Shown here: positions 4,001 through 36,850 of the stretch, piece after piece | How positions within the stretch are numbered: position 1 is the first letter of the stretch | How the letters are laid out: each line of letters starts with the position of its first letter | Assembly: GCA_018402585.1 (NCBI GenBank) | Contig: JAGYIO010000003.1 | Coordinates: 140,386-204,385, forward strand | Direction of reading: 5' to 3' | DNA length: 64,000 bases | DNA from: Chthoniobacterales bacterium | GTDB lineage: Bacteria > Verrucomicrobiota > Verrucomicrobiia > Chthoniobacterales > JACTMZ01 | Notes under the pieces: model-generated | Told to the model about the DNA's origin: nothing | The model's database searches: none | What the model saw: only the letters and a program-made list of their open reading frames with translations | Made by a program: the position numbers and the translations under genes

Positions 4001-4032
4001 GGACGGCCGAGGTCAAGCCCCACTACAGACCC

Positions 4033-4666: not shown

Positions 4667-4802
4667 CAGGGGGAACGGGCGTCTCGCCCGTTTTCCGAAA
4701 GACCACCCGGGCGGGACGCCCGCAACCCAAATCATTGGGGTGTGGCATCGGCATCCTGCCGATGGGTTTGGATCGTGACGGGCGGGACGCCCGTGCCCCC
4801 TG
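4667..4802. repeat. Inverted pair of the GGGG(C/A)ACGGGCGTC(C/T)CGCCCGT motif enclosing a CATCGGCATCCTGCCGATG hairpin
   Basis: 4667-4691 (cagggggaacgggcgtctcgcccgt) and 4778-4802 (acgggcgggacgcccgtgccccctg) are near reverse complements. The hairpin CATCGGC-atcct-GCCGATG lies at 4746-4764. The same two modules recur at 49126-49223. Confidence 0.6.
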
Positions 4803-5005
4803 TCCAAAGCAGTAATTGGCGGGTCCGCCATAACCCAAGTTACTCGGGAGCCAATGGCGCGTCGCTAACCACGGGTCTGGAGATCGGCAAAATGGGGGGT
4901 CTCAGCCTCGAAAGGGACCTGTGAGTTTAAGGTTGGGAAGTTGAAAACCGACGACTGTTCAGATCGGCCACTCCACCCTCACGACTTTCCACCACGATTT
5001 CCAAC

Positions 5006-7346: not shown

Positions 7347-7439
7347 GGGTAGAGAGGTTTTGGGAGTTGCGGAGGAAGCCAGCCGAGCATCTAGCCACGC
7401 AGCAGCCCAACTTCACAAGCTCTAGCTCCGATTAGCGCC

Positions 7440-7460
7440 TAGTCACTTCGGACTATAGCG
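7440..7460. promoter_or_regulatory. Conserved 21-nt box TAGTCACTTCGGACTATAGCG (TAGTC-N6-GACTA palindrome), copy 1
   Basis: 19 of 21 nt match 10132-10152. The box lies in the divergent region between GH3 (-) and the beta-helix gene (+), 98 nt before the 7558 ATG. Confidence 0.45.
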
Positions 7461-7557
7461 GCGGTGGATAAACCGGCGTAGTTTCCTCTCGTTCTTTGCG
7501 TCGCGTCCACGCAGCAACAAACAAATCCAAACAACCTCCACAACACCCAGTCCTCCC

Positions 7558-9849
7558 ATGAAGCTCAAAACCAAAACCCCCAAGTTACGTCGCGCCCGCC
7601 TCGGAACTTCCCTCGTCACCGCGGCCCTCGCAGCGATCAGCCTTTCGGCCGCCAGTGCCCAAGACAATTCCTGGACCGGCGGCACGAGCACGGATTGGAA
7701 CACCCCGGGAAATTGGAGTCTCGGAAATGTACCAAGCGGGCAGAACGCCATTGTGGACAACGCGTCGGGAAACATCGCAACCATCTCCGCGGATATTGCC
7801 GCCACGCCCAATGATATCGTCGTGCGCGGGGGAGGCCGCCTCGATCATCTTGCCGGAACCGCCGGCACAGGCGGAGGCAGTTGGATGTTTGTCGGCCAGA
7901 ACGGCACGGCGGGCACCTACAATTTGGCGGACACCGCCACGGCCGCTGCCGGCCTGACCGGTTTTGCCCAGGGAACCGGTTCACTCAACGCCACGGGGAA
8001 TCTAAACGTAGGTGCTGCTGGTGACAATCGGACCGGAACCGTGCGGGTCAACACGGCGGGAACGCTTGCCGTCTCCGGCGAATTCTTCATCGGTGACTCG
8101 CTCAACAGCACGGGCACTTTCAGCCTCGAAAACGGCAGCATGACGGTGAACAACAAGATCTATGTCGGCAACAACCGGGGCACCGGGACGCTGACCATGT
8201 CCGGCGGCACGCTGACCAAGACCGGCGGCGACCAAACTTTTGTCGGCCGCGACAGCGGCACCGGGACCCTCACCCAGAGTGGCGGGACCATCACGCTGAA
8301 CCATGATTTCTACGTGGGACAAGGCGGCGGTGGCAACGGCACTCTCAATCTTAGCGGCAACTCGGTGCTCAACACCGGGCGTGATTTTGTCATCGGCCGC
8401 GAGAGTGGCACGGGCACGCTCAACATGACCGGCGGCACGATCACCAAGACCGGGGATGAGAAGATGATCGTCGGCCACAACAATGGCACAGGCACCGTGG
8501 TGCAGAGCGGCGGAACGATCAACGTGAATCAAAACCAGTTGTATATCGGCAACGAAAATGCCGGGGCTCAGGGAACCTATACCCTCAGCGGGACCGGAGC
8601 GCTCAACGTGGCGGACGAATTGGTCGTCGGCCGCGAGAGCGGCACAGGTATCTTGAACGTCAACGGCGGCACGATCACCACCTCGGGCAACGGCAACATG
8701 TATATCGGGCGCCGTAACGGCACAGGCACCCTCAACCAGACGGACGGGGTAATCAGCGTGATTTACGAATTCGGCGTGGGTACGCGCGATGACAACAAGA
8801 TTGGCACCGGCACCTACAATCTGAGTGGAGGCACCTTGTCGGCGGGTCGTAACATCTTCATCGGCAAAGAACTCGGATCGTCCGGAACGATGGTCATGAC
8901 CGGCGGGGCGATGAGCACGAGCGACAAGTTGCAGATCGGGCACAACCAAGCGACGGGCGTTCTCACCCAGAGCGGCGGCACGGTGAACGTGCAAAACGAA
9001 GTCTTCATCGGCAATGAAAACAATGCCTCATCGGTGGGAACCTACACCCTGAGCGGGACCGGCGTCCTCAACGTGGGCAACGAGGTCATTGTCGGCCGCG
9101 ACAACGGCACGGGAACCTTCAACCTCGACGGAGGCACGGTCAACGCCACCAAGATTTCCGGCGGCAACGGCAGCGCGACGGTGAACTTCAACGGCGGCGT
9201 GCTCAAAGCCAAACGGGACGAGGCCAACCTGATCGAAAACCTGGACACCGCCAACGTCGAAAACGGCGGGATCAAGATCGACAGCAACGGGTTTGCTGTT
9301 GCCACCAGCCAGGCTCTGACCGGCACGGGCGGCTTGGAGAAGCTGGGCGCGGGCAGCCTGACCCTCAACGCAGCCAGCACTTACACCGGGCCGACGCTGG
9401 TCAGTGCCGGCACCTTGACCTTGGCCCTCAACAGCAGCATCACCAGCGCGGTCACTGTGGCCGACGGCGCCGCCCTCGGCGGAGCGGGCGCCATTGCCGG
9501 CGACCTCTCCTTCAACTCCGGCGCCAAGTTTGCCTTTAGTCTCACCCAGACACTTCTCGCCAACGGCGCCACGGTGAGCTTTGCCGACTTCGGCATTGAC
9601 GATCTTGTCGGATTGTCCAGTGCGACCACGGTCGGTCTTTACAACCTCATCGGCGGCACCGCTATCATCAACACGAACGGACTGAGTAATCTGGGTGCCG
9701 CCAACGCCGCCGATCTCGGCGATGGAAAGTCCGCCTACTTCACCGAAGGTAGTTTGCAAGTCAACGTCGTTCCGGAACCCAGCACCTACGCTTTACTCGT
9801 CCTCGCCGGTCTGGGGCTGGCCGGCCACGTCATCCGCCGGCGGCGCTAA
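7558..9849 (+). CDS. Autotransporter-associated beta-strand-repeat surface protein with a C-terminal PEP-CTERM anchor
   Basis: It has a signal peptide and the NSWTGGTSTDWNTPGNWS motif. It carries about 20 repeats of the G-T-G-T-L-x-x-S-G-G-T-I type and GGLEKLGAGSLTLNAASTYTGPTLVSAGTLTL. The C-terminus is VPEPSTYALLVLAGLGLAGHVIRRRR. Confidence 0.9.
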   Translation: MKLKTKTPKLRRARLGTSLVTAALAAISLSAASAQDNSWTGGTSTDWNTPGNWSLGNVPSGQNAIVDNASGNIATISADIAATPNDIVVRGGGRLDHLAGTAGTGGGSWMFVGQNGTAGTYNLADTATAAAGLTGFAQGTGSLNATGNLNVGAAGDNRTGTVRVNTAGTLAVSGEFFIGDSLNSTGTFSLENGSMTVNNKIYVGNNRGTGTLTMSGGTLTKTGGDQTFVGRDSGTGTLTQSGGTITLNHDFYVGQGGGGNGTLNLSGNSVLNTGRDFVIGRESGTGTLNMTGGTITKTGDEKMIVGHNNGTGTVVQSGGTINVNQNQLYIGNENAGAQGTYTLSGTGALNVADELVVGRESGTGILNVNGGTITTSGNGNMYIGRRNGTGTLNQTDGVISVIYEFGVGTRDDNKIGTGTYNLSGGTLSAGRNIFIGKELGSSGTMVMTGGAMSTSDKLQIGHNQATGVLTQSGGTVNVQNEVFIGNENNASSVGTYTLSGTGVLNVGNEVIVGRDNGTGTFNLDGGTVNATKISGGNGSATVNFNGGVLKAKRDEANLIENLDTANVENGGIKIDSNGFAVATSQALTGTGGLEKLGAGSLTLNAASTYTGPTLVSAGTLTLALNSSITSAVTVADGAALGGAGAIAGDLSFNSGAKFAFSLTQTLLANGATVSFADFGIDDLVGLSSATTVGLYNLIGGTAIINTNGLSNLGAANAADLGDGKSAYFTEGSLQVNVVPEPSTYALLVLAGLGLAGHVIRRRR

Positions 9850-23676: not shown

Positions 23677-26148
23677 ATGTCCGCCCCCAAGCTCACTCCC
23701 ATGATGCGCCAATACCAGGACATCCGCCGCGAGCTTCCCCCCAACACCCTCCTCTTCTTCCGCCTCGGGGACTTTTACGAAATGTTTTTCGACGACGCCC
23801 GCGAAGCGTCTGCCCTCCTCAATGTCGCCCTGACCAAACGCGGCGACACCCCCATGTGCGGCGTCCCCTACCACAGCGCCCGCGCCTACGTGGCCAAACT
23901 GGTCGAAGCCGGCAAACGCGTCGCGATCTGCGACCAAGTCGGCGAAGTCACTCCCGGCCAACTCGTCCGTCGCCAAATCGCCCGCATCCTCAGTGCCGGC
24001 ACGCTCGACGACTTCGGCCTCGAGGAAAACCGCCACAACTACCTCGCCGCGGTCTGCCCGGAGAAAAAATCCTCCGGCCTCGCCTGGCTCGATCTCAGCA
24101 CCGGCGAATTCCGCCTCGCCGAAATCGAATCGCCCGCCCAACTCGCCGACCAACTCGCCCGCCTCCAACCAAGCGAACTCCTCATCCCCGACCACCTCGA
24201 GACCACCCCCGACCTCCCGCTGCCCCCCACCCCGCACGACGCCTTCGCCTTCGACCTGACCCAGGCCACCGACCTCCTCTGCGACCACTTCCGCGTGCAA
24301 TCCCTCGACGGCCTGGGCTGCACCGATCTCCCGCACGGCACCCGTGCCGCCGGCGCCCTCCTCCATTACATCACCCGCAGCCTCCGCCGCGACGCACAAC
24401 ACCTCGCGCCCCCGAAACCCTGGCACGCCACATCCTACCTCCTCCTCGACGCCGTCACCCAAACCAACCTCGAACTCGTCGAATCCCGCAGCCCCGAAGG
24501 CACCAGCCTTCGCGGCGCCATCGACCGCACCCTCACTCCGATGGGCGCCCGCCTGCTCCGCGAATGGATCCTCCACCCGCTCCGCGATCTCGCCGCCATC
24601 ACCCACCGCCAAGACCTCGTCGCCGCTTTCCATGATGACCCCACCCGCCTCGCCGCGATACGCGACATCCTCCGCGACATCCGCGACATGGAACGCGCCG
24701 TCTCCCGCCTCAGCCTCGCCTCCGGCAACGCCCGCGATCTCGTCGCGCTGAAAACCTCCCTTGCCCTCCTCCCGTCCCTCCGCGCCACCCTCGCCGAAAA
24801 CGACACCTCCCCGCTCCTCGCCCTCGCCGCCGACCTCCGCACCTTCGACCCGCTCGTCGTCCTCCTCGAATCCGCCGTGGTCGACGAACCCCCGCCGACC
24901 CTCCGCGACGGCGGCATGATCCGCGAGGGCTACAACCCCGACCTCGACGAACTCCGCCGCGCCGGCACCGAAGGACGCCGCTGGATCGCCGAACTGCAAG
25001 ACCGCGAAATCGCCCGCACCGGCATCAAGTCGCTCAAAATCCGCTACAACTCCGTCTTCGGCTACTACCTCGAAGTGACCAAATCCAATCTCGCCTCCGT
25101 CCCCCACGACTACACCCGCAAACAAACCACCGCCAACTCGGAGCGCTTCATCACCCAGGAGCTGAAAGAAATGGAAGGCCGCATCCTCGGCGGCGAAGAA
25201 CGCGCCCGCGCCCTCGAGTCGGAAATCTTCGGCCAACTCCGCACCGCCGTCCTCGCCGAATTGGCCTCGCTCCAACACACCGCCCGCGCCGTGGCCCAGA
25301 TCGACACCCTTGCCGGACTCGCCGAAACCGCCCGCACCTTCCGCTACATCCGCCCGAAACTCACCGCCACCGGCGCGATCAAAATCACCGACGGACGCCA
25401 CCCCGTCCTCGACCAAACCATGCCCGCCGGGCGCTTCGTGCCCAACGACACCGCGCTCGACACCGACGCCCCCCGCCTCGTCATCCTCACCGGCCCCAAC
25501 ATGGCCGGCAAAAGCACCTACATCCGCCAGGTCGCCCTCCTCGTCCTCCTCGCCCAGACCGGCAGTTTCATTCCCGCGGCCGAAGCCGAGATCGGACTGG
25601 TCGACCGCATCTTCACCCGCGTCGGCGCGAGCGACGACCTGGCGCGCGGACAATCCACCTTCATGGTCGAGATGAACGAAACCGCCGCCATCCTCAACAA
25701 CGCCACCGACCGCAGCCTCGTCATCCTCGACGAAATCGGCCGCGGCACCTCCACCTTCGACGGCCTCTCCATCGCCTGGAGCGTGGCCGAGCACCTCCAC
25801 GACGTCACCGCCTGCCGCACCCTTTTCGCCACGCATTACCACGAACTCACCGACCTGGCCCGCACCCGCCGCGGCGTGACCAACTGCAACATCGCGGTCC
25901 GCGAATGGAACGACGACATCATCTTCCTCCGCAAAATCATCCCCGGCCCCGCCGACCAAAGCTACGGCATCCAAGTTGCCCGCCTCGCCGGCCTGCCCGA
26001 ACCGATCCTCAAACGCGCCCGCGAAATCCTGACCAACCTGGAAAACTCCGAACTCACCGCCGAAGGCAAACCGGCGCTAGCCGAAAAACGCCCCCGCGCC
26101 CACAAACTCCGCGCCTTCACCGACCAACTCGACCTCTTCGAGTCCTAG
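23677..26148 (+). CDS. mutS: DNA mismatch repair protein MutS
   Basis: Motifs present: TPMMRQYQDIRRELPPNTLLFFRLGDFYEMFFDDA, GPNMAGKSTY Walker A, and DEIGRGTSTFDG. The stop TAG (26146-26148) lies inside the terminal CCTAG of the MITE-like element. Confidence 0.97.
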   Translation: MSAPKLTPMMRQYQDIRRELPPNTLLFFRLGDFYEMFFDDAREASALLNVALTKRGDTPMCGVPYHSARAYVAKLVEAGKRVAICDQVGEVTPGQLVRRQIARILSAGTLDDFGLEENRHNYLAAVCPEKKSSGLAWLDLSTGEFRLAEIESPAQLADQLARLQPSELLIPDHLETTPDLPLPPTPHDAFAFDLTQATDLLCDHFRVQSLDGLGCTDLPHGTRAAGALLHYITRSLRRDAQHLAPPKPWHATSYLLLDAVTQTNLELVESRSPEGTSLRGAIDRTLTPMGARLLREWILHPLRDLAAITHRQDLVAAFHDDPTRLAAIRDILRDIRDMERAVSRLSLASGNARDLVALKTSLALLPSLRATLAENDTSPLLALAADLRTFDPLVVLLESAVVDEPPPTLRDGGMIREGYNPDLDELRRAGTEGRRWIAELQDREIARTGIKSLKIRYNSVFGYYLEVTKSNLASVPHDYTRKQTTANSERFITQELKEMEGRILGGEERARALESEIFGQLRTAVLAELASLQHTARAVAQIDTLAGLAETARTFRYIRPKLTATGAIKITDGRHPVLDQTMPAGRFVPNDTALDTDAPRLVILTGPNMAGKSTYIRQVALLVLLAQTGSFIPAAEAEIGLVDRIFTRVGASDDLARGQSTFMVEMNETAAILNNATDRSLVILDEIGRGTSTFDGLSIAWSVAEHLHDVTACRTLFATHYHELTDLARTRRGVTNCNIAVREWNDDIIFLRKIIPGPADQSYGIQVARLAGLPEPILKRAREILTNLENSELTAEGKPALAEKRPRAHKLRAFTDQLDLFES

Positions 26149-26370
26149 CCGTAACAATGCAAAACAATCTGCCTTTTCCGGCGCTGCCACAGAGGCGCGC
26201 CTGGGCGAGAGTTGACTAACTGTTTGGCGAGCGAGTTGGTACGTAGCCAAGGGGCACGGGCGTCCCGCCCGTCACGATCAGACAGCACGGCCGGGGACGG
26301 CCGTGCCCCCTGGAAAAACCGAGCCAAGCCGCGCTTTTATTGCGTCTCCGACTGCATGGATACGGCTTAG
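26144..26370 (+). mobile_element. 227-bp MITE-like element, copy 2 (the most diverged copy)
   Basis: The TIRs are CCGTAACAATGCA (26149-26161) and TGCATGGATACGG (26353-26365). The flanks are CCTAG and CTTAG. The core GGGGCACGGGCGTCCCGCCCGTCACG...CCGTGCCCCC is conserved. Confidence 0.6.
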
Positions 26371-26384
26371 CGTCTTAAACATCT

Positions 26385-26448
26385 GTAGCGGCGCCGTCCC
26401 CGGCGCCGGCCGTTAACCTAAGCTTGTAGCGGCGGTCTACGACCGCCG
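26385..26448. repeat. Two tandem TGTAGCGGCG-type hairpins (REP-like)
   Basis: The first is tgtag-CGGCGCCG-tccc-CGGCGCCG at 26385-26408. The second is tgtag-CGGCGGTC-tac-GACCGCCG at 26426-26448. Related GTAGCG/GTAGGG-led hairpins lie at 21941, 29734 and 54608. Confidence 0.6.
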
Positions 26449-26452
26449 GAAC

Positions 26453-26836
26453 CTATCCCTCCAACCCAGAGCAAAACTCCCGAAAAGCCCTCTCCTCTTC
26501 CGCCGTCGCTACCCCCGCCACAATGTGCCCCGCGAGACTCCTCACAACCAGTTTCCGCGCCGCCGGCAAGTCCAACTGATTGATCACGTCACGGATGATC
26601 GCCGCAAAAGTGTTTCCATTGTAAAAACAGAAAGCAGCGCCGCGATGACAACGCCTGCACAATTCGACAGCTTCATTGAGCGTTGTCTCTTGAAGGTAAT
26701 GACTCTCCCAGAGCTGCCGCGTGACTTCGTGCCCGTCCGATGTCGGCTTATGCAGAGCACTCTTTGCCGAGCATAGCATCGCATTTTGCGCGGTCACAAA
26801 CTCCCAAGAGTAGTCGCGCAGCCACACCCGCTTCAT
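26453..26836 (-). CDS. Hypothetical protein (127 aa), second gene of a low-GC orphan pair
   Basis: It is the only long ORF here, and no family was recognised. Its start lies 3 nt after the stop of the 62-aa ORF. A hand count gives ~48% G+C for 26581-26700, against visibly GC-richer flanks. Confidence 0.55.
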   Translation of the reverse strand: MKRVWLRDYSWEFVTAQNAMLCSAKSALHKPTSDGHEVTRQLWESHYLQETTLNEAVELCRRCHRGAAFCFYNGNTFAAIIRDVINQLDLPAARKLVVRSLAGHIVAGVATAEEERAFREFCSGLEG

Positions 26837-26839
26837 GGC

Positions 26840-27028
26840 TCAGCTTTTGTACGGTTGCTTCTTCTTGATTTCCTGCAACTCCGCAACGCCGCGGCTCTTC
26901 AAATAGCCTTTGCCCGTCTTGGCGTAAACGGGCTCCGCGCTGAATTGATCCTGAATCGCCAAACCCTCGCGCAGGACCCGCTGAAATACCGGATTCTCCA
27001 ACATCTCCGGATTGATCACCGGCTTCAT
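26840..27028 (-). CDS. Hypothetical small protein (62 aa), first gene of the orphan pair
   Basis: MKPVINPEMLENPVFQRVLREGLAIQDQFSAEPVYAKTGKGYLKSRGVAELQEIKKKQPYKS. It is tightly coupled to the downstream ORF, and no family was recognised. Confidence 0.45.
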   Translation of the reverse strand: MKPVINPEMLENPVFQRVLREGLAIQDQFSAEPVYAKTGKGYLKSRGVAELQEIKKKQPYKS

Positions 27029-27158
27029 GGCTGAACTATACCATCACTCCATCCTCCACGCAAAGCCCCCATCCGTCTCCTCTCCGCGCCATCCGCAGTT
27101 CCCCTCCCAACCCCACCCGCGATTGACACCCCTCTCACTCCTCAAAGACACTCCCCCG

Positions 27159-27971
27159 ATGCCCATCCTGCATTTCCAAAAGATGAACGGCGCCGGCAAT
27201 GACTTCGTCCTGCTCGACAACCGCGACGGTTCACTCTCCCTCACCGACACTCAAATCGCCCGCCTTTGCCACCGCCACCGCGGCGTCGGGGCCGACGGAC
27301 TCCTCCTCGTGGAAAAGCCCGAAGCCCAAGCCGACTTCCGCATGCGTTATTACAACGCCGACGGCCGCGAAGCCGAGATGTGCGGCAACGGCGCCCGCTG
27401 CTTTGCCCGATTCGTCCACCAACTCGCGCCCGCCAAGAACGGCACCGTCACCTTTGAAACCCCGGCCGGCCTCATCTCCGCCACCCTGCGCGGCGACCAA
27501 GTCTCCCTCGGCATGAGTCAACCCGGTCCCTGCGCCCCTGGCGTGGAACTCGACGCTGCCGGAAAAGCACTCACCGTCTACTCGATCCATACCGGCGTCC
27601 CGCACGCCGTGGTCCTGGTCGACGACCTGGACGGCACCGACGTCCATCCGCTCGGCGCCGCCCTCCGCCATCACCATCACTTCCAACCCCGCGGGACCAA
27701 CGTCAATTTTGTCCGCCAGCTCGGACCCCAAGACCTCGCCATCCGCACCTACGAGCGCGGCGTCGAAGCCGAAACCCTGGCCTGCGGCACCGGCGTGGTC
27801 GCCGCCGCCCTGACCATCGCCACCCTCACCGGCGCCGAGTCCCCCCTCCGCGTGCTGGTCAAAGGCGGCGACACCCTGAGCGTTGATTTCCTCCCCGCCA
27901 AGGAAGGCTTCTCCCACGTCATCCTGACCGGCCCCGCCGATTTCGTCTTCAAAGGCGAGATACCAGTCTGA
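27159..27971 (+). CDS. dapF: Diaminopimelate epimerase
   Basis: MPILHFQKMNGAGNDFVLLDNR, EMCGNGARC and ETLACGTG provide the two catalytic Cys contexts. The start is moved to ATG 27159, because the track extension from 27012 is P/S-rich and unlike DapF. Confidence 0.93.
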   Translation: MPILHFQKMNGAGNDFVLLDNRDGSLSLTDTQIARLCHRHRGVGADGLLLVEKPEAQADFRMRYYNADGREAEMCGNGARCFARFVHQLAPAKNGTVTFETPAGLISATLRGDQVSLGMSQPGPCAPGVELDAAGKALTVYSIHTGVPHAVVLVDDLDGTDVHPLGAALRHHHHFQPRGTNVNFVRQLGPQDLAIRTYERGVEAETLACGTGVVAAALTIATLTGAESPLRVLVKGGDTLSVDFLPAKEGFSHVILTGPADFVFKGEIPV

Positions 27972-28111
27972 GCCTGAAGTGGCCTCGGCATCCTGCCGAT
28001 CATCCCCAAAACCACACACCTCCCCCTCCCCGAGGACACGGGCAAACTCCCCAAACCCGAACCTTGCCGCTTGTCATCAACTCCATGGTTAAGGTTTAGT
28101 TTCCTTCCACC

Positions 28112-28990
28112 ATGTTCGCCGGAACCTACACCGCCCTCGTTACCCCCTTCCGCCACGGCCAAGTCGATTACCACGGCTTCCGCCAACTGATCGAAGCCCA
28201 AATCGCCGGCGGGGTGGACGGCATCGTTCCGGTCGGCACGACCGGCGAATCCCCCACCCTTTCCCACGACGAACACCGCGAGGTGATCAAAGCCGCCGTG
28301 GAGATCGCCGCCGGACGGATCAAAGTCGTCGGCGGCACCGGCTCCAACGCCACGGACGAAGCCATCGCCCTGACCCAAGACGCCGAAAATGCCGGTGCGG
28401 ACGGCGCCCTCGTCGTTGCCCCCTATTACAACAAACCCACGCCCGAAGGCCTTTACCGCCACTTCTGCGCCATCGCCGAAGCCACCAAACTCCCGATCAT
28501 TCTCTACAGCATTCCCGGCCGCTGCGGCGTGGAGATCGGCGTGCCCGTGGTGGCCCGCCTTGCCCAAGATTGCCCGAACATCGTGGCGATCAAAGAAGCC
28601 GGCGGCACGGTCGAACGCGTCAGCCAGCTCCGCCAGGCCGTCCCCGACGTTTTCGAAATCATCTCCGGTGACGACTCGCTCACCCTCCCCTTTATCTCGG
28701 TCGGTGCGGTCGGCGTGATCAGCGTGGCCTCCAATCTCGCCCCCGCCCAAGTCAGCGAACTCGTCCGCGCCGCGCGTGACGGACAAATGACCCGCGCCGA
28801 ACAACTCCACCGCCGCCTCTACCCGCTCTTCAAAAACCTTTTTATCGAAAGCAATCCCTCCCCCAGCAAATACGCCCTCTCCCTCACCCTGGGCCTCTCG
28901 CCCGAAGTGCGTCTCCCGCTGGTCGAAATGACCGAAGAAAACCGCCAACTCATCCGCGCCACCCTCGCCGATCTCGACCTCCTGCCATGA
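28112..28990 (+). CDS. dapA: 4-hydroxy-tetrahydrodipicolinate synthase
   Basis: Motifs present: GTYTALVTPF, VPVGTTGESPTLSHDEH, YNKPTPEGLYRHF and AIKEAGG (with the Schiff-base Lys). Confidence 0.95.
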   Translation: MFAGTYTALVTPFRHGQVDYHGFRQLIEAQIAGGVDGIVPVGTTGESPTLSHDEHREVIKAAVEIAAGRIKVVGGTGSNATDEAIALTQDAENAGADGALVVAPYYNKPTPEGLYRHFCAIAEATKLPIILYSIPGRCGVEIGVPVVARLAQDCPNIVAIKEAGGTVERVSQLRQAVPDVFEIISGDDSLTLPFISVGAVGVISVASNLAPAQVSELVRAARDGQMTRAEQLHRRLYPLFKNLFIESNPSPSKYALSLTLGLSPEVRLPLVEMTEENRQLIRATLADLDLLP

Positions 28991-29730
28991 GCACCCCTCT
29001 TCGCCTCTGCATCCACGGCGCCCAAGGCCGCATGGGCCAAGCCCTCATCCGCTGCGCGGCCGAAGATCCGGAACTTGAAGTGACCGCCACGGTCGACACG
29101 GACGATAATTTCTCCGCCGCGCTCACGGAGTGCGATGCGGTGATCGACTTCTCCGCCATCCAGATCACCAGTCAGGTGGCCAAAGCCTGCGCCGAGGCCG
29201 GCAAAGTCCTCGTCATCGGCACGACCGGACACGAACTCGCCGAGCGTGAGCTGATCAAGCAAGCCGCAGCCAAGATCCCGCTCGTCTTTTCCCCGAACTA
29301 CAGCGTCGGCGTGAACACCCTTTTCTGGCTCACCCGCAAAGCCGCCGAAATCCTTGGCTCCGACTTCGACCTTGAAGTGGTCGAAATGCATCACCGCCTG
29401 AAAAAAGATGCCCCCTCCGGCACCGCCCGCCACCTCGCCGAGATCCTCGCCGAAGTCCGCCAACTCGACTACGCCGAGTCCGCCCGCCACGGCCGCGCCG
29501 GCCTGGTCGGCGAACGCGCGAACGACGAAATCGGCGTCCACGCCATCCGCGGCGGCGACGTGGTCGGAGACCACACCGTGATCTACGCCGCCCCCGGCGA
29601 ACGCCTCGAACTCACCCACAAAGCCTCCAGCCGCGACACCTTCGCCCGCGGCGCCCTCCGCGCGGCCAAGTGGGCCAGCAAGCAACCGGCCGGTCTTTAT
29701 GACATGCAGGATGTGCTCGGCCTCAAGTAA
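28987..29730 (+). CDS. dapB: 4-hydroxy-tetrahydrodipicolinate reductase
   Basis: Motifs present: GAQGRMGQAL, VIGTTG, FSPNYSVGVN, EMHHRLKKDAPSGTA and IRGGDVVGDHTV. ATGA overlap with dapA. Confidence 0.93.
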   Translation: MSTPLRLCIHGAQGRMGQALIRCAAEDPELEVTATVDTDDNFSAALTECDAVIDFSAIQITSQVAKACAEAGKVLVIGTTGHELAERELIKQAAAKIPLVFSPNYSVGVNTLFWLTRKAAEILGSDFDLEVVEMHHRLKKDAPSGTARHLAEILAEVRQLDYAESARHGRAGLVGERANDEIGVHAIRGGDVVGDHTVIYAAPGERLELTHKASSRDTFARGALRAAKWASKQPAGLYDMQDVLGLK

Positions 29731-29751
29731 CCCGTAGCGTCGCCTTCCCCA

Positions 29752-29923
29752 GCGACAACCACTTCAGATCAGACTTGGTGGATCGCGATGTCCCACTCGC
29801 GATTTTCTTCACTTCACCTCGCGCCGGGGACGGCGCGATCCACCTTCCGCAACTACTCCTCCCGAACTTCCAAGCGCAGGAACTTCTGCGCTTCTCCCGG
29901 CAAGACCGGCACTGTCGCGCGGC
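29752..29923. repeat. ~171-bp direct repeat, copy A, containing a relic protein C-terminus
   Basis: It aligns by eye at roughly 80% with 31132-31302. The minus strand of 29853-29918 encodes ATVPVLPGEAQKFLRLEVREE*. The S8 protease C-terminus is ATAPVLPGERQKFLRLEVGEN*. Confidence 0.7.
29782..29810 (+). terminator. Candidate intrinsic terminator downstream of dapB
   Basis: ATCGCGA-tgtcccac-TCGCGAT is followed by TTTTCTTC. The same hairpin with a T-run occurs in repeat copy B at 31163-31188. Confidence 0.4.
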
Positions 29924-29936
29924 CGCAGATCGCGGA

Positions 29937-30926
29937 CTACCCTTTCTCCGGTTCTTTGCGTTTGAGAAAATCGAGGGCCGCGCGGAAACGCTCTTCGTTC
30001 TCCGGCGACGAAGCAGCCAAGGCTTCGTGCGCCTCGACCATGGTGCCTCGCTTGTATTCTTTGGTGGCGGCGAGAGCCAAGTTCTCCATTTCGTCCCGGG
30101 CCGGCGGAGCCGCTTCGAAGCCTTGGAAAGCCAGCACCCGGTCCAAGCCGTAGCGACTGAAAAGCGCTTCGACCTTGGCGTTGACCCGCGTGAAACCGAT
30201 GCGACCGCGCGGATCCTCACGCAGACGCAGGGCCAAACCGGTCAGGATGCCGAGGAAGGTCGAGTCCATCATCTCGCACCCCTGCAGATCGAAAGCAAAC
30301 GACCGGTGGCCGGCCTCGAACATCTGTTCGGTATGGGCGCGCAGGGTCGCACCGTTCTGAAAGGTGCCGTGACCGTCGACCCGCAGCCAAACCGTGCCAC
30401 GAGTGACCAGTGTCCGCGTTTCGGCGGCCCGCAGCGCAGGACGGAATGTGGCCAGCGCTTGCTGACGCAGGACTTCACGGTCGTATTCCTTCCTCGGCTC
30501 AACCCGGAGCACCGGCAAGTCCGCCTTGGCCAGTGCCATATCGAAAAACTCGGCATCCACATGGTGACGCGGTTCGCCACGGTCAAACTCAATCACGCCG
30601 ACGATTTGTCCGTTGTCCGGCGTGCAGACCACGAAGTCGGCATGCTCCAAGCGGAGGCGGGCCAGTGCGCCGTGACGCCAGGCCGCGAAGGCGGCAGGGG
30701 AAGGGCGGACCACGTCAGCCAGACTGACCTTGGCAAATATTTCAAACTCGGGAGAGAGTGCGCGCCGCGCCGTGGCCACAAAACGCTTCTCCTCCTCATC
30801 CAAAAGCGCAGCAGCCTTGCTGTAAGACACCGACTTTGTCCCGCGCCGCCGCCATCCACGCAGCCCCCAGATCAACCCTGCGGTGATGGCCGCGCCGAGC
30901 AGGAGACCTAAAGCAAAAAACGTCAC
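29937..30926 (-). CDS. Membrane-anchored DUF2726 (PD-(D/E)xK/NERD-like) plus STAS domain fusion protein
   Basis: There is an N-terminal TM (FFALGLLLGAAITAGLIWGL). The DUF2726-like pattern is LLDEEEKRFVATARRAL...FAKVSLADVV...ADFVVCTPDNGQIVGVIEFD...ADLPVLRV. The STAS-like part is FAFDLQGCEMMDSTFLGILTGLALRL...VNAKVEALFSRYGLDRVL. Confidence 0.7.
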   Translation of the reverse strand: MTFFALGLLLGAAITAGLIWGLRGWRRRGTKSVSYSKAAALLDEEEKRFVATARRALSPEFEIFAKVSLADVVRPSPAAFAAWRHGALARLRLEHADFVVCTPDNGQIVGVIEFDRGEPRHHVDAEFFDMALAKADLPVLRVEPRKEYDREVLRQQALATFRPALRAAETRTLVTRGTVWLRVDGHGTFQNGATLRAHTEQMFEAGHRSFAFDLQGCEMMDSTFLGILTGLALRLREDPRGRIGFTRVNAKVEALFSRYGLDRVLAFQGFEAAPPARDEMENLALAATKEYKRGTMVEAHEALAASSPENEERFRAALDFLKRKEPEKG

Positions 30927-31131
30927 AACAGTTTGCTAACTCCCCGTATAACCCCTTATCAAGGCCCGAATACGCCCCTGCGGCGGGAGTGCCTTTCCCC
31001 TTCCCTGCCTCTCCGCGCAGCAGACCTGCCCTCGGGCACCACCCCCGTAATCTCCGGGCCCCCCGGCGGCTCGCCTCGAACGCCCCGACAAAGCATCGAG
31101 CCGCGACACCTCCGCGCAAGACACCCTCCTC

Positions 31132-31302
31132 GGCAACAACCGTTTCAGATCAGACCTGATGGATCGCGATGTCCCGCTCGCGATTTTTCCACTTTACTCC
31201 CGCGGGGGACAGCATGATCCACCTTCAGCAACTAGTTTTCCCCAACTTCCAAACGCAGGAACTTTTGCCGCTCCCCAGGCAAGACCGGCGCAGTGGCGCG
31301 GC
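31132..31302. repeat. ~171-bp direct repeat, copy B (the 3' end of the S8 protease gene plus downstream sequence)
   Basis: See 29752-29923. This copy includes the last ~22 codons and the stop codon (31232-31234) of the 1872-aa gene. Confidence 0.7.
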
Positions 31303-34300
31303 GTATTTCATAGTCACCGTGATCGCTGACCAACTCATCGGTCACACCGTCGGCCGACCAATTGCTCGTGTTGAGATCATTCTTCCAGACTACACGTCCG
31401 CTCACGCCGTTGAGTGATTTGCTGCGACGATAATCCAGATGGAAGCTCGTTGCGGTCGGCGCACCAATGACCATGGCTCCCGCCGCATTGCCGCCCGGTT
31501 GCAGGCCAAAGAAATATTCCGCCAAATTCACCAGACCGTTGCCGTCCGGATCCGCACCCGGAGATGCGTCAGACAAGCCGGCCGACCAATCCCCGAAGCT
31601 GACTCCCTGCACGGTCAACGTCCCGGGGAAATAGAAAATCGAGTAATTCGCCGGATTGAACGCCCCGCCGGCGGCAGCTGATGGCGTGAGCGTGTAGACA
31701 CCCGCCGCATCATTGGCCGCCGTGCCGCCATTGGCGGCCAGAGTGACCGAACCAATCGTCTCCCCGTCGGCCAAACCCGAGGCGCTGAAGGCGGTCTGCC
31801 CGGGCCCAAGCGGTAATGACTCGCCGAACGGTTTACTTTGATCAAGAGCGGTGATGTTCAGCCCGCGCGGCCGCACTTCGCTTTCGGGCATGGCCATGAC
31901 CGCCGGAGCGGCTCCCGCCGTGGTACACGTGATGTCACCCGAGTAAAACCCGACTGGCATGCCTGCCGCCAAACGGATGAAAACCACGGTCGGCGCCAGT
32001 TCACCCGCCCCACCGAGTGCCGCAGTCGGCGCATAGCCCGTCGTGCCATCCTCGCTGAGCGACAACTCAAAGCCGGTGGGTGGGGTGATGGTGATGCTTT
32101 CTTGCAAATCACTGCCGGCCACGAGGAACGAGGTCTGCGTCAGCGAGGGAAGCCCATAGGTGGCAATCTGGACGGAGGGCTGGCCGGAAAGCGCAATTTC
32201 CGGAGCCGGTCCCGCGGCGGCATCGGTAATGAGCAGATTGTCGATGTTGGCGCGGCGGTTACTAGAACCGGAGCTACCCGCTCTGATACGCACGCGCGCT
32301 GGGCCAGAAATATTCACAGCGGCGGAGAAAGTGGCTACCTCGGCACCGGCCGTGAATCGTCCGGCTTCGGTCCATACCCCACCTGCATTGGTGCTGTATT
32401 CCACGATCCACGGGATCTGCGTGTCCGACCCATAGCGCCGATGCTGAAAACTGATAGTCCCGATACCTCCTAGTTTGTCGTTCAGCATGACCATCTCGGA
32501 GGTGCCATAGCCTCGCAGGCGGGCGGATCTCAGGCCGTTTTTGAATTCGGTCTGCTCCGTGCCGATCAGCACCTCCGTCATGCTCCACGTCAACCCGTTG
32601 AGCATATCGGTTCCAGCGGCATAACCAGCTTTGCTCCCATCCTCAAAATCGACGAGGTAGCTCGTCCCCCCGGATGCGTTAATCGTCAAATTCAGCACCG
32701 CTTGTCCACTGCCAGCGGCATTGGAAGCCGTGAGAGTGACCGCAAAGCCTCCCGTTTGCGCGGGCACGCCGGAGATCAATCCGGTCGCGGGCACAATGTT
32801 CAATCCCGATGGCAGCCCGGTGGCGGCAAAAGTGTTGGGGTTGTTGCTGGCCGTGATCTGGTAATTGAAGGACTGACCCACCACAGCAACTGCCGTCGAT
32901 GCGCTGTCAATGACGGGAGTTGCCGCCGAGCTGGCGGAATTGCGCGGCGCGGGCGGCCCGGCCGAAAAATCCGCACCGTTGTCTCCCGTGTCCATGGCTC
33001 CGCCTCCGGCACGGAAGATAGCAGTGGTCGCCGAAGGCGACGGAGCCGCCGCCGATCCTTCGTAAGCATTAGCCGCCCCGAAACCAACAAAGTCCTGCAG
33101 CCCGCTTTGTCCGACCGGCGAGGAACCCATGAAGAGCGCCGTGGTGTTGCGCAGGGCGACCTTGCCCTGCGTGGCACTCATCCTAATGGCACCAGTTAGG
33201 TCGGGTGTGGGCAACGCGGCACCCGTGGATCCGCCCGAGAGCCTGACGAGGAAATACCCACCGGGCGCGATCGTGCCGACCAGATCCACCTTCGTGCTCC
33301 AACTGGTTCCCGAAGCCGAGGAGTATTGCAGGCTCCAGCCCGCGAGATTGACGGCTGATCCGCTCCGGTTGTGCAGTTCGACATAGTCCGCATTGTAAAC
33401 CGCCCCGTTGTTGCCACCCGCGCCATAGATCTGGCTGATTAAAACCGGTGACTCCACGATCGTGAAACTCGTTGAACTGGTCGCCACACCGAGTGGAGTG
33501 ACGACACTTAGCGGACCGGAAGTGGTGCCCGCGGGCGCGACCGCGGTGATTTGCGTGGCGGAGTCCAAAGTGTAAGCAGTGGCATTCACACCGTTGAATC
33601 GCACGGCGGACACATTGGCGAAGTTGACTCCAGTAATGGTCACGCTCTCGCCCGCCGCCCCACTGGCGGGGCTGAACGCTGCAATCGATGGCGCACCATT
33701 CCCGACGAGCACGGCTACGGTCGACGGCACCGTGGTCGTCGAAAGATTGCCGTTGTCCCACGCCCGCGCGGCCAGCGCATAGGTCCCGGCCGCGGGCGGT
33801 GTCCACGTTGCGGTATAAGGCGAGACGCTGCCGGCGGCCACAATCTGTCCGTCGACGAGAAATTCCACGCGGTCGATGACCCGCGGCGATCCGTCCTCGA
33901 GTTCGCCAGAGGCGGTGGCGGTGGCGGACAAAGTCAGCGGCTGCCCGGAGGCGACCACGGTGCCGCCTGTTGGCGTATTGAGCGTGACCACAGGCGGTTG
34001 GCCGCCGTCGCCACAGCAACTCGACTGCACCGTGGTTATATCCAGCCGCCACCCGCCGGAGATCGAGCCAGCGTCTTGGGCGGCACGATCCACGACATAG
34101 AGCGCCCAGTTTCCGTTGGCTGAACCACCGTTGAAGGGGGAAAGAGCCGCGCCGTAGGGCACTGCAGGGGCCGGAGACGGCAAACTGCTGGACACACCTG
34201 TGGGCCGGAAAATGCCCGAAGTGATCGACGAACCGACAGACGCTGTCGCTTCGTCATCGAAGGTGATGGTGGCATTGACCGCATCCGTTCCTCCGCCAAC

Positions 34301-36850
34301 CCTGCCCAGCAAACCGACGCGCGCACCGTCTGGTCCGACAAGCAGGACATCCAAGTCACCCGGATAGGTGTGCGACAGACCGACGAGAGTCACCGCGACT
34401 TTGCTGACCACCCCGGACCGGCCTGCGACATTGATGATCGACGGATAAGGCGTCGACGCACCGCTGTCCGGTATGGTCATGCTCGCCGGATTGGACGCTT
34501 GGGCGGATTCCGTGGCCGCGATGCCGAGCACGAACTCGAAAGCCACCGTGCCGAGACTGGTCGCGCCGTCCTGCAGAGCCAGCACAGCGCTGACCGTTGC
34601 CCCGCACTCACCTTCGGTAACGAATTCGAAACTCCGCGCCACCGCCGCACCACCCGCCGGCAGCACGCCGTAGGATTGCGGACCGCTCGTCAACGCGGTT
34701 ACGCCGTTGCCATCGAGCAAGGTGGCGGTCAGATTGGTCGTGCTAGCCGTGCCGTTGTTCTTCAAGGCCAGGGCCATGGTGACAATCTCACCCGGATCCG
34801 GCACTCCATTGCCCGCACCGCAACTCTCGGCCACCAACGTGCCACCGTCCGCAACGACCACCGGCACCGAGGCGGTCGCCCCGCCGGTGACCACTAAGGA
34901 GTAGGCCTGCGCCGAGGTGGTCAACGAGCCATCCAAAGATACGGTCACCGTGTAGGAACCGGCCTGCACCGGCGACGCCAGCAGCACCTGCTCGGTGTTA
35001 TCAACGTTGTTTTTGCCGCGCGTGGCCGCCAGCGCCATAGAGGCGTCCGACCACGTGCCGACAAAGGGCATAACAAAAGGTTGGTAAACCGTCGTGCCGT
35101 CCGGCGCAGTGATCTTGAGATCGAGATTGTGGACCAGATTCGGCACGCGGCTGTTGTCGGCCTGCGCCGTGCCGGCGGGATCGGTCCAACTCAGCGTGGC
35201 ACGAATCGGACTGACCCCATCCCACTGGAAGACGTGGGATCGCGAGCGCACGGACGAAGTGAGGGTGTTTTCGATCAGCTTCGGGGTGCCGGGAAATTGC
35301 TTCTGCGACAGGATAACATCGGCCGCTGCCTTCACGTTGATCAGGCCCCAGCCGAATTTGTAATCCGGTCCCGGCGTGCCGAGGTCGTCGGCCGTGTGGA
35401 TGAGCAAGGCTTTGAGTAGACTGGCTGGCAGACGCCGGCCGCCGAACTCGCGCGCGTAAAGCTGGGACAACAGGGCGGCCGAGCCGGCAGCGGATGGCGT
35501 GGACATGCTCGTGCCGCCGTAGGACGAGTAAGCCGAGTCGCTCGTGTCGATCGGCGAATAGACGGTCACGCCATTGGCCACCACATCGGGCTTGATCCGG
35601 CCGTCGTCGCACGGGCCCCAACTCGAGAAGGTCGACATCGTGCCGGCCGCCGGTGAGCGCGCACCGCCGCTGACCGCATCGTTGACCGCGCCGACTGTCA
35701 TAATATTTTTGGCCAAGCCGTTGAAGGTGATCGACTGGTAGCCGTTCTTGGCCGTCAACTCATCCTGCTCGTTGCCCGCCGCCCAGAAGATCAGGAAATA
35801 AGGCATACTCACGGCGAGCGTGTCCGTCGTGCGCGACTCCGCATTGTAGCGGCCCATGTCCGAGATCGTCGCGTTGTAGCCGTAGGAGTGGTTGGAAATA
35901 GGAATTTTCGACGAGTCACCGGTAGCGGTAGCCGCTCCGGAGGAGGTCATTTCCGCGTAGTCGCTGTTCCAATCCCACGAATCGATCGCCACGTTCGGCG
36001 CCATGCCCTTGGCCAGATTGGTGAAGCCGAGTGCACCGACCGTGCCGGCCACGTGGGTGGCGTGATCGTCGAGGGCTACGTTGTTGCGCTTGATGACCCG
36101 CGTGGTGTTGAACTCGCGGTGGGTGTTGCGCACCGCGCCGGCATCCCACACCCCGACCTTCACTCCCGTGCCGTCGAGATTGTAGGGCGCCGGATAAAGC
36201 AGATTGGCCGCGCTGGAGATGGCCGCGTTGCGATTCTGGGTCACCCGATAAAGCGGCTCGGTGCCCCGGATGTCGTGCAAGATAGCCACCCGTTGGCCCG
36301 GACCCTCGACCCGCACCGGAATATCAAGTTCTTGCGCCTTGGCCAACACGGCCTCGTAGCGCACTTCCTCGGCCTCCGCCATTTCCCCCACGGCCAGCGC
36401 CCGCTGGGCCGGATCCGCCAAATCCTTGCCAGCCAAAATTTCCGCCGGCGTGCGGTAAACCGTGAATCCGTCCGGCCAAGCCGGCCCACGCACCGGATCC
36501 GGCACCACCCCCTCGCCCGCGGAGGCCGCCGCACTGACCACGCGGGCTTGCTTGGGCTCCGATCGCTGGACAGGCGAAGCTGGCGGAGAGGTCTGCGCCG
36601 GGGCATTGGTTGCCGCGGGCATCGCTGGGGCCGTGCTGCTCTGGTCAACGGCGGCGGCCATCGCGGGAGACGATGATACCATATCGGCAAGGGCCAAGTC
36701 CGGAGCCGACGGCGCAGAAAGCGGAGCGTCATTGCCGACTTCATCGACCAGGGGGACCGGCAGAAAACCCGGGCCAAAGAAAACTCCTACCCCGAGCAAC
36801 GCGGCCCCCAGAATGATGGTGGCCAGAAACAGGCGTGGACGGGTGTTCAT
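31232..36850 (-). CDS. Giant secreted subtilisin-like (S8) serine protease with P-domain, IPT/TIG, lamin-tail (LTD), Ig-like and C-terminal DPDG...FLRLEV modules
   Basis: The catalytic triad contexts are VGVWDAG, DDHATHVAGTV and GGTSMSTPSAAGSAALL. SHTYPGDLDVLLVGPDG marks a proprotein-convertase P-domain. LISQIYGAGGNNGAVYNADYVELHN marks an LTD. PVIDSAS...FNYQITASNNP...GLPSGL is a putative Ig domain. The tail is ADPDGNGLVNLAEYFFG. Confidence 0.9.
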   Translation of the reverse strand: MNTRPRLFLATIILGAALLGVGVFFGPGFLPVPLVDEVGNDAPLSAPSAPDLALADMVSSSPAMAAAVDQSSTAPAMPAATNAPAQTSPPASPVQRSEPKQARVVSAAASAGEGVVPDPVRGPAWPDGFTVYRTPAEILAGKDLADPAQRALAVGEMAEAEEVRYEAVLAKAQELDIPVRVEGPGQRVAILHDIRGTEPLYRVTQNRNAAISSAANLLYPAPYNLDGTGVKVGVWDAGAVRNTHREFNTTRVIKRNNVALDDHATHVAGTVGALGFTNLAKGMAPNVAIDSWDWNSDYAEMTSSGAATATGDSSKIPISNHSYGYNATISDMGRYNAESRTTDTLAVSMPYFLIFWAAGNEQDELTAKNGYQSITFNGLAKNIMTVGAVNDAVSGGARSPAAGTMSTFSSWGPCDDGRIKPDVVANGVTVYSPIDTSDSAYSSYGGTSMSTPSAAGSAALLSQLYAREFGGRRLPASLLKALLIHTADDLGTPGPDYKFGWGLINVKAAADVILSQKQFPGTPKLIENTLTSSVRSRSHVFQWDGVSPIRATLSWTDPAGTAQADNSRVPNLVHNLDLKITAPDGTTVYQPFVMPFVGTWSDASMALAATRGKNNVDNTEQVLLASPVQAGSYTVTVSLDGSLTTSAQAYSLVVTGGATASVPVVVADGGTLVAESCGAGNGVPDPGEIVTMALALKNNGTASTTNLTATLLDGNGVTALTSGPQSYGVLPAGGAAVARSFEFVTEGECGATVSAVLALQDGATSLGTVAFEFVLGIAATESAQASNPASMTIPDSGASTPYPSIINVAGRSGVVSKVAVTLVGLSHTYPGDLDVLLVGPDGARVGLLGRVGGGTDAVNATITFDDEATASVGSSITSGIFRPTGVSSSLPSPAPAVPYGAALSPFNGGSANGNWALYVVDRAAQDAGSISGGWRLDITTVQSSCCGDGGQPPVVTLNTPTGGTVVASGQPLTLSATATASGELEDGSPRVIDRVEFLVDGQIVAAGSVSPYTATWTPPAAGTYALAARAWDNGNLSTTTVPSTVAVLVGNGAPSIAAFSPASGAAGESVTITGVNFANVSAVRFNGVNATAYTLDSATQITAVAPAGTTSGPLSVVTPLGVATSSTSFTIVESPVLISQIYGAGGNNGAVYNADYVELHNRSGSAVNLAGWSLQYSSASGTSWSTKVDLVGTIAPGGYFLVRLSGGSTGAALPTPDLTGAIRMSATQGKVALRNTTALFMGSSPVGQSGLQDFVGFGAANAYEGSAAAPSPSATTAIFRAGGGAMDTGDNGADFSAGPPAPRNSASSAATPVIDSASTAVAVVGQSFNYQITASNNPNTFAATGLPSGLNIVPATGLISGVPAQTGGFAVTLTASNAAGSGQAVLNLTINASGGTSYLVDFEDGSKAGYAAGTDMLNGLTWSMTEVLIGTEQTEFKNGLRSARLRGYGTSEMVMLNDKLGGIGTISFQHRRYGSDTQIPWIVEYSTNAGGVWTEAGRFTAGAEVATFSAAVNISGPARVRIRAGSSGSSNRRANIDNLLITDAAAGPAPEIALSGQPSVQIATYGLPSLTQTSFLVAGSDLQESITITPPTGFELSLSEDGTTGYAPTAALGGAGELAPTVVFIRLAAGMPVGFYSGDITCTTAGAAPAVMAMPESEVRPRGLNITALDQSKPFGESLPLGPGQTAFSASGLADGETIGSVTLAANGGTAANDAAGVYTLTPSAAAGGAFNPANYSIFYFPGTLTVQGVSFGDWSAGLSDASPGADPDGNGLVNLAEYFFGLQPGGNAAGAMVIGAPTATSFHLDYRRSKSLNGVSGRVVWKNDLNTSNWSADGVTDELVSDHGDYEIRRATAPVLPGERQKFLRLEVGEN

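Follow-up and report, generated by a model that had tools for sequence, protein, structure and literature searches.

A clade-restricted protein that joins a membrane-anchored DUF2726 domain to a STAS module in freshwater Verrucomicrobia

Introduction

Partner-switching STAS modules are best known for sigma-factor control, and their other outputs, among them transport ATPases, secretion and polysaccharide synthesis, are still being catalogued. This study concerns a gene of a Chthoniobacterales bacterium at positions 29937-30926 on the minus strand of a 64-kb stretch of contig JAGYIO010000003.1 (the window, meaning the whole stretch that was analyzed). Its product places a STAS domain behind a transmembrane helix and a DUF2726 domain. 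SpoIIAA and RsbV are the closest described relatives of the STAS half. They share with the window protein the STAS fold and a D-S-(S/T)-x-L-G phospho-acceptor motif that aligns, and the close stand-alone relatives of the window protein are paired with PP2C phosphatases. SpoIIAA and RsbV are single-domain proteins, whereas the window protein is anchored in the membrane and has two domains, with STAS as its C-terminal half and a conserved two-helix tail in addition. The fusion gene also differs in having no adjacent kinase, phosphatase or sigma factor gene, and its product scores under the NCBIfam cutoffs. A second point of comparison is RssC of P. aeruginosa, a homologue of rsbV on which the adaptor function of RssB in RpoS turnover depends (PMC12143880). 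The RssC profile aligns to the window protein over the STAS core and on through the C-terminal extension, but the match is very weak (23-50 bits versus a cutoff of 250), the phylum is a different one, the module is fused to a transmembrane DUF2726 protein, and no RssB-like gene adjoins it.

DUF2726 has been assigned to the PD-(D/E)XK superfamily beside Vsr and DUF559 (PMC3424549), and in some phyla it is fused to Abi-type N-terminal domains and found near mobile elements (PMC3710099, PMC3424549). The papers found that mention DUF2726 include no functional study of the family and no mention of a STAS fusion. Stand-alone transmembrane DUF2726 proteins (~185-240 aa) have the N-terminal transmembrane helix, the fold, the E/K/D/E positions and the P/Y motifs in common with the window protein; canonical members differ by a tight ELDDxSH...RxxRD signature and the lack of STAS. 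Most members of the fusion family lie beside a HerA-like ATPase gene, an arrangement that recalls the HerA-associated nuclease defense systems DUF4297-HerA and Sir2-HerA. The pair in this family differs from those systems in that its genes are divergent and not operonic, the ATPase match is confined to the core, the synteny is that of housekeeping genes, no PADLOC nuclease model matches, and the window copy has no HerA-like neighbor.

No paper on a transmembrane DUF2726-STAS fusion was found, as the original prediction, a note made from the DNA letters alone, had supposed. We regard the architecture as a previously undescribed variety of STAS partner-switching module, one to which an unusual domain is covalently attached. 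Our favored reading, to which we assign a probability of roughly 50%, is a membrane-tethered, phospho-regulated partner-switching protein with an in-cis nuclease-fold domain, whose ancestral task was tied to a pilus-like machine. A STAS switch covalently tied to a membrane-anchored nuclease-fold domain would add a new output class, and the protein offers a handle on DUF2726, which is widespread on chromosomes and plasmids and has no assigned function.

Gene and domain architecture

The complete open reading frame encodes 329 residues, with a GTG start codon at 30926 and the stop codon at 29937-29939. A family alignment of 25 members has 24 homologs that begin at the identical position and back this start codon. 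The open reading frame list, Pfam, the homologs and the alignment all describe a complete gene, which is thus confirmed as real. A 378-aa open reading frame antisense to the gene (29775-30911) was rejected as a high-GC artifact.

HMMER searches against Pfam place DUF2726, STAS and STAS_2 above their gathering cutoffs in the window protein. The full-length AlphaFold model has a mean predicted local distance difference test score (pLDDT) of 74.7 and a predicted template modeling score (pTM) of 0.49. It consists of an N-terminal helix (residues 2-31), an α/β domain (35-142), a linker (155-166) with pLDDT below 50, the STAS domain (169-265) and two further helices (289-306 and 308-323). The N-terminal transmembrane anchor, seen in the sequence and within the first model helix, covers residues ~3-22 (30861-30920, minus strand). 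The basic stretch RGWRRRGTK comes directly after these hydrophobic residues, and by the positive-inside rule the protein beyond the transmembrane helix is predicted to be cytoplasmic. The domain order given in the original prediction (transmembrane helix, DUF2726, STAS, helical tail) is correct by the Pfam scores and the AlphaFold helices, and the strand that it quoted, ADFVVCTPDNGQIVGVIEFD, is found in the protein and holds D97 and E113. Its description of the first domain as NERD-like has to be dropped; NERD (PF08378) gave no Pfam match even at E ≤ 10.

The STAS module and its helical tail

The STAS domain, of the SpoIIAA/RsbV type by Pfam, Foldseek and phmmer alignment to the B. subtilis SpoIIAA structure 1auz, occupies residues 174-265 (30132-30407, minus strand). 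The Pfam STAS model scores 26.7 bits over these residues against a cutoff of 22.6, and STAS_2 scores 31.8 bits over residues 181-262 against a cutoff of 29.2. Foldseek was used to compare the modeled STAS half with the PDB, and SpoIIAA and RsbV are the best matches (1thn_B, 6m36 and 1th8_B) with a probability of 1.00, TMt of 0.76-0.83 and a root mean square deviation of 1.4-2.1 Å. Several of these top structures are complexes with the kinases SpoIIAB and RsbW. The phmmer alignment to 1auz sets the window sequence mmDSTflG over fmDSSGlG and puts S222 at chain index 57, which we take to be native Ser58 on the assumption that the 116-residue chain lacks Met1. The codons for D221, S222 and T223, which align to the phospho-serine motif DSS of SpoIIAA, lie at 30258-30266 (minus strand). 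All three residues are invariant in 25/25 family members, and the motif is also visible in the distant full-length members and the stand-alone relatives.

The STAS domain is followed by a C-terminal two-helix extension (residues 267-326; 29949-30128, minus strand) with the motif EAHEALAASSPENEERF..FLKRKEP, defined by the two C-terminal model helices and the RssC profile. The tail is common to stand-alone STAS proteins, histidine kinase-STAS fusions and the RssC profile NF045506, which spans the STAS core plus the tail of the window protein over profile positions 19-157 of 159. Two stand-alone relatives match the same profile at E values of 1.9e-13 (P0048) and 2.3e-10 (P0051). The window protein scores 23.1 bits against NF045506, and it and both relatives stay far under the curated cutoff (250); they resemble RssC but are not members of its family. 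Its scores against TIGR02886 (24.6 versus 114.75) and TIGR00377 (21.1 versus 53.45) are also under the curated cutoffs. Judged by sequence and modeled fold, the C-terminal half has the STAS fold and is a predicted anti-sigma-antagonist module of the RsbV/SpoIIAA/RssC kind. The STAS-plus-tail module is also found at the C terminus of membrane histidine kinases and of one response-regulator-PP2C protein (P0040, P0052, P0042), and its tethering to signaling or membrane proteins is a recurring theme in the phylum.

The DUF2726 domain

DUF2726 covers residues 40-156 (30459-30809, minus strand) and was characterized by Pfam, a separate domain model, fold matches, conservation and substitution rates. 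The Pfam family (PF10881) matches these residues at E = 7e-17 with 61.8 bits against a gathering cutoff of 24.7, over profile positions 3-122 of 126. Modeled alone with a more diverse alignment, the domain reaches a pLDDT of 94 and a pTM of 0.86 with the order α-β-(insert)-β-β-α-β. No PDB structure matches this model at E < 1e-3, and the closest is BstEII at 5.7e-3. The informative PDB matches are BstEII, Bax1, FAN1, TnsA, AgeI, BsaWI and 3ijm, all of them nucleases of the restriction-endonuclease fold. The top matches among viral models (BFVD) are a phage DUF2726 protein (2.4e-4), a VSR homing endonuclease, DUF559, VRR-NUC and a mismatch endonuclease. The domain thus models confidently as a Vsr-like restriction-endonuclease α/β core, and these nuclease-fold matches agree with the published PD-(D/E)XK placement (PMC3424549). 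A sequence search of the PDB with the family profile returned chance CBS-domain matches only (E > 0.1) and was set aside.

E46, K66, D97, P138 and Y148 are invariant in the fusion family and residue 113 is always E or D. The E46, K66, D97 and acidic 113 set is kept even in members that are 32-39% identical. The canonical stand-alone transmembrane DUF2726 signature reads E...KV...DF...ELDDxSH...RxxRD. The fusion clade departs from it by loss of the second D, a 2-residue insertion before the His and a variable H121, with D115 kept in 19/25 members and H122 in 20/25.

Mean pairwise identity across the family is 82% in the STAS domain, 80% in the tail, 61% in DUF2726 and 48% in the transmembrane segment. 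The ratio of nonsynonymous to synonymous substitution rates (dN/dS) is 0.12-0.28 for DUF2726 and 0.06-0.14 for STAS, and the DUF2726 half outpaces the STAS half ~3-fold in protein-level evolution. Purifying selection acts on both, and STAS-plus-tail is the most constrained part of the protein.

Phyletic range

A word-indexed search returned ~37 full-length homologs with 60-96% identity, all from metagenomes or metagenome-assembled genomes named Verrucomicrobiota or Chthoniobacterales. HMMER was used to search 1.84 billion cluster representatives exhaustively, and only four full-length clusters were found: that of the query itself, P0043 (39% identity), P0044 (35%) and P0045 (32%). The remaining ~2,600 matches are mostly stand-alone STAS-plus-tail proteins (~160-185 aa) or the stand-alone transmembrane DUF2726 proteins; the rest comprise a few histidine kinase-STAS-tail fusions and a single response-regulator-PP2C-STAS fusion. 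Among the 185,579 species genomes of GTDB, the fusion occurs in four, all of them metagenome-assembled genomes of Chthoniobacterales or 'Spartobacteria', and 18 further Chthoniobacterales loci hold a stand-alone STAS-tail gene only. The protein is a rare fusion of two common building blocks and is restricted to one freshwater group of Verrucomicrobia. In a Rosetta-stone test, stand-alone transmembrane DUF2726 and stand-alone STAS-tail genes were never adjacent in the loci examined. P0070, an apparent stand-alone DUF2726 protein, is encoded at a contig end in an S9-peptidase context shared with P0043, and it probably represents a truncated fusion.

Gene neighborhoods of the family

Members of the main clade, which are 63-75% identical to the window protein, have a strongly conserved gene order that runs hom, thrC, lysC, DUF805, META, RNase HII, a divergent HerA-like ATPase, the fusion gene, LssY_C and a secretin, followed by an ~800-aa prepilin-type (N_methyl) protein, a PilT/PilU-family ATPase and several unknown genes. 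The secretin is of the GspD/PilQ type and the PilT/PilU-family ATPase matches TIGR01420 at 4.7e-83. The gene of P0045, the most distant member, precedes the same secretin operon at a distance of 97 bp, so the linkage is old; P0043 and P0044 lack it.

The pilus-like operon was delimited in two of the relatives' loci (9292-16984 in L001 and 3490-11393 in L035). Besides LssY_C, the secretin, the protein with the prepilin-type N terminus and the ATPase, it encodes 3-4 small proteins with no family match, and its secretin weakly matches the Amuc_1098 family. The neighboring HerA/YjgR-like P-loop ATPase (789 aa; L001 5528-7897, with orthologs in L004, L008, L009 and L013-L015) has a C-terminal half of low-complexity/coiled-coil sequence. 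Only its ATPase core matches HerA, YjgR and PADLOC mad8. Its identity of 84-92% is above the conservation of the fusion protein itself.

Stand-alone STAS-tail genes have a different neighbor. In 17/17 Chthoniobacterales/Verrucomicrobiota loci that are long enough (L016-L031 and L041), the next gene ~70-170 bp downstream encodes a GAF-SpoIIE PP2C phosphatase, and this invariable arrangement is the signature of a partner-switching pair. In L041 (6001-8043), grpE and dnaJ come after the phosphatase gene, which occupies 6613-8043, and a prepilin peptidase gene lies ~3 kb upstream.

In the window, the fusion gene sits between dapF-dapA-dapB (plus strand) and the gene for a 1,872-aa secreted subtilase (minus strand), with mutS, malate synthase, an M20 peptidase and transporters farther out. 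None of the usual family neighbors (HerA-like ATPase, LssY_C, secretin, PilT, RNase HII and others) is present in the window.

Proposed role and alternatives

A partner-switching role at the membrane would have arisen when a transmembrane-anchored DUF2726 protein was fused to an RsbV/SpoIIAA/RssC-type STAS-plus-tail protein in Chthoniobacterales-type Verrucomicrobia. An RsbW-type kinase and a PP2C phosphatase of the kind found next to the stand-alone relatives, both encoded at other loci, would control the phosphorylation state of S222, and this state would decide the binding partner of the STAS module. The switch would be fixed at the inner membrane with the nuclease-fold domain coupled to it in cis; this domain may bind or cleave nucleic acid or may dock a partner in another way. 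Purifying selection together with the retained E-K-D-E core points to DUF2726 as a working domain. The ancestral place of the gene would have been the head of the secretin/prepilin-type/PilT-family ATPase operon, opposite the HerA-like ATPase, so its task is likely linked to that envelope machine. The gene behaves like a stably inherited chromosomal signaling gene, unlike an anti-phage defense islet.

Five observations weigh against this role. The operon link is missing in the window lineage, P0043 and P0044, so the linkage may be inherited gene order and not function. No kinase, phosphatase, sigma or anti-sigma gene adjoins any fusion gene and none is present in the window, where PP2C phosphatases and histidine kinases were both looked for, which makes the switching partners hypothetical. 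The NCBIfam scores for anti-sigma antagonists and RssC are far under the curated cutoffs. The geometry between the domains is poorly predicted (pTM and linker pLDDT both low), and the model therefore lends no support to coupling of the domains in cis. Finally, the loosened DDxSH/RxxRD signature, seen at D115 and H122, makes catalysis uncertain.

The conserved operon also invites a rival proposal, in which DUF2726 would be catalytically active close to the membrane, as a nuclease that processes DNA where a type IV pilus/type II secretion-like machine faces the cytoplasm. It would act with the HerA/FtsK-like ATPase, for instance in DNA uptake or export, and the STAS domain would gate the nuclease or attach it to the PilT-family ATPase. 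STAS domains bind transport ATPases, and MlaB-MlaF structures are among the STAS fold matches of the window protein. Riley et al. (2018, cited in PMC9239167) reportedly found that a STAS partner-switching system controls hormogonium development, which is type IV pilus-dependent, in Nostoc. The persistence of the secretin/N_methyl/PilT-family linkage in members merely 32% identical, the divergent HerA-like ATPase conserved in the main clade, and the invariant E46/K66/D97/E113 core in a domain under purifying selection are all consistent with this proposal. The gene is nonetheless off the operon in the window lineage and two distant ones, and gaps of 100-500 bp and the intervening LssY_C gene speak against tight co-translation. 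The predicted site of the domain is cytoplasmic, while incoming double-stranded DNA is first met elsewhere; the HerA-like protein resembles HerA and YjgR in the ATPase core only; and no competence genes were identified. We consider a DNA-processing role of this kind unlikely.

The same degraded signature (ELDDxSH...RxxRD with its 2-residue insertion and variable D115, H121 and H122) and the faster evolution of the DUF2726 half would be expected if the domain were catalytically dead and served as a membrane-proximal dimerization or docking platform that localizes the anti-sigma-antagonist module, for example by sequestering a partner. The tethering of the STAS-tail module to other membrane proteins, such as histidine kinases, fits a scaffold as well. 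Unless there is a metal or active site, it is difficult to account for the invariance of E46, K66, D97 and acidic 113 down to 32-39% identity, and a dN/dS of 0.12-0.28 reflects real constraint. A dead scaffold is an improbable account of the domain. Distinctly doubtful is the most elaborate scheme, a phosphorylation-gated membrane nuclease in a new Chthoniobacterales DNA-handling route, in which the pilus-like machine and the HerA/FtsK-like ATPase would move DNA and the STAS domain would license cleavage. If a phospho-gated nuclease were true, it would give the widespread transmembrane-anchored DUF2726 proteins a first function and make partner switching the direct control of a nuclease and not of a sigma factor. 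Being small, clade-restricted and syntenic with a pilus-like operon, the family lends itself to clean comparative work in freshwater Verrucomicrobia, which are poorly studied.

The original prediction had proposed a stand-alone sensor-effector, such as a defense or stress module. Its signaling part fits, in that the STAS half belongs to a partner-switching family and its stand-alone relatives are PP2C-paired; the defense part is not supported. A defense or toxin module, in which a signal received by STAS unleashes the membrane-anchored nuclease on invading or self DNA, would draw on the restriction-endonuclease fold with its acidic and lysine core, the scores of the usual neighbor against the PADLOC HerA and mad8 models, and the movement of the gene within its genome (described below). 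DUF2726 fusions to Abi-type domains and proximity to mobile elements in some phyla point the same way (PMC3710099, PMC3424549). Zero families of PADLOC-DB 2.0 match the window protein or its 68%-identical homolog in L001. Phage records and IMG/VR hold no relatives of the protein, and its only plasmid relatives are four distant ones (25-28% identity) that match the DUF2726 part only. PHROGs returned a weak family of unknown function (E = 2.7e-4) and a chance spanin match on the transmembrane helix only. No mobile gene is present at the window locus. The flanks are housekeeping genes at all family loci, namely dapFAB, mutS, malate synthase and the subtilase in the window and hom-thrC-lysC-RNase HII elsewhere, and gene order is stable over species 63-75% identical, unlike the turnover of defense islands. 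The sole defense-flavored element is the HerA-like neighbor; its behavior is that of a core gene, and at 84-92% its conservation exceeds that of the fusion protein. Within the protein, the regulatory half and not the effector half is the most constrained. The original prediction had named uniformly core-genome homologs as the case against it, and the family, which has no defense-island association and is inherited vertically in synteny within one order, comes close to that case. With zero PADLOC matches, no phage or IMG/VR kin, housekeeping neighborhoods, no compositional anomaly and purifying selection, a stand-alone defense module is very unlikely.

Relocation into the dapB-subtilase junction

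The fusion gene in the window is bracketed by two copies of the junction between the subtilase gene and the spacer toward dapB. Copy B (31124-31302), identified by a repeat search, alignment and blastn, is the functional 3' end of the S8-protease gene with its downstream spacer. Copy A (29743-29923), identified by blastn and translation, lies between the stop codons of the fusion gene and dapB and consists of a non-functional S8-protease tail remnant and a hairpin spacer. The copies are 81.8% identical over 181 nt by blastn (E = 9e-45), with a mean column identity of 85% in the alignment. The remnant reads RATVPVLPGEAQKFLRLEVREE where the real subtilase ends in RATAPVLPGERQKFLRLEVGEN, and it is still open over 22 codons. 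A decayed remnant of the dapB 3' end lies upstream of the gene (31032-31132); it is 76% identical to 29564-29662 (blastn E = 8e-14) and also matches dapB of L007, the locus of a 91% relative.

Between the repeats lies a unit (~29924-31031) that matches in extent the block conserved with L007. By blastn this block joins 31016 to 29918 of the window to 1612-2710 of L007 with 88% identity, and local alignment scores it at z = 21.7. It passes the start codon by 90 bp, and this upstream region (30927-31016, minus strand) is the presumed promoter/leader that moved with the gene. Scans for sigma-70 promoters and intrinsic terminators at the locus gave nothing above chance. An inverted-repeat search detected an imperfect hairpin with 26-nt arms that are 81% complementary (29777-29844) in the spacer between the convergent fusion gene and dapB, and the hairpin of the repeated spacer lies at 29777-29844 and 31160-31183. 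It is possibly a bidirectional terminator, although the simple terminator scan gave no call.

L007 and L012 have the same subtilase/fusion gene/dapB order as the window. A first blastn comparison showed no duplication in L007; sensitive local alignment then showed that L007 keeps the dapB-fragment relic (z = 7.5) and has no S8-tail relic (z ~0). The shared order and the dapB relic place the relocation before the split of the window and L007 lineages. The scar is consistent with either of two events: a circular intermediate bearing the gene and junction homology may have integrated by a single, Campbell-type crossover, or the gene may have undergone duplication-mediated transposition. Within the window the two subtilase-tail copies are 82% identical, against 79% for the orthologous tails of the window and L007, and this difference is a hint of gene conversion between the repeats. 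A genome-wide repeat element behind the flanking repeat was considered and rejected, as only two copies occur in the window. In L009, which encodes a 63%-identical member, the gene two positions upstream of the fusion gene encodes an orthologous giant S8 subtilase (357-8830; S8, convergent HerA-like gene, fusion gene). Proximity to the subtilase seems to predate the dapB-junction event in this order, which is not reconciled with a simple insertion model.

The G+C content is flat at ~0.62-0.64 across the locus, and this profile rules out a compositional islet. The event is an intragenomic relocation of a lineage gene into the dapB/S8-protease junction, with no foreign islet. The segment was rightly called inserted in the original prediction, in view of the duplicated junction and a location that differs from most of the family; the term single-gene islet holds for the bracketing of the gene and fails for composition. 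The duplicated junction is a natural record of a single-gene relocation in a chromosome with no recognizable mobile element.

Other features of the flanking genes

The subtilase (31232-36850, minus strand) contains P-domain, Big_7, TIG, LTD and He_PIG domains. Its C-terminal '...DPDGNG...FLRLEV' tail is presumably of the type that is common at the ends of Verrucomicrobial surface proteins. The dapF open reading frame (27012-27971, plus strand) begins with a TTG at 27012 that adds ~50 N-terminal residues, and its DAP_epimerase domain starts at residue 55. The true dapF start is probably the ATG near 27159 (MPILHFQKMNGAGNDF...). Plus-strand GC skew is -0.2 to -0.42 over mutS and dapFAB (24000-29700, plus-strand genes) and ~0 over the minus-strand genes (30000-36500). 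The cumulative skew falls throughout 24000-36500, and a replication-strand bias appears to be superimposed on the coding-strand bias.

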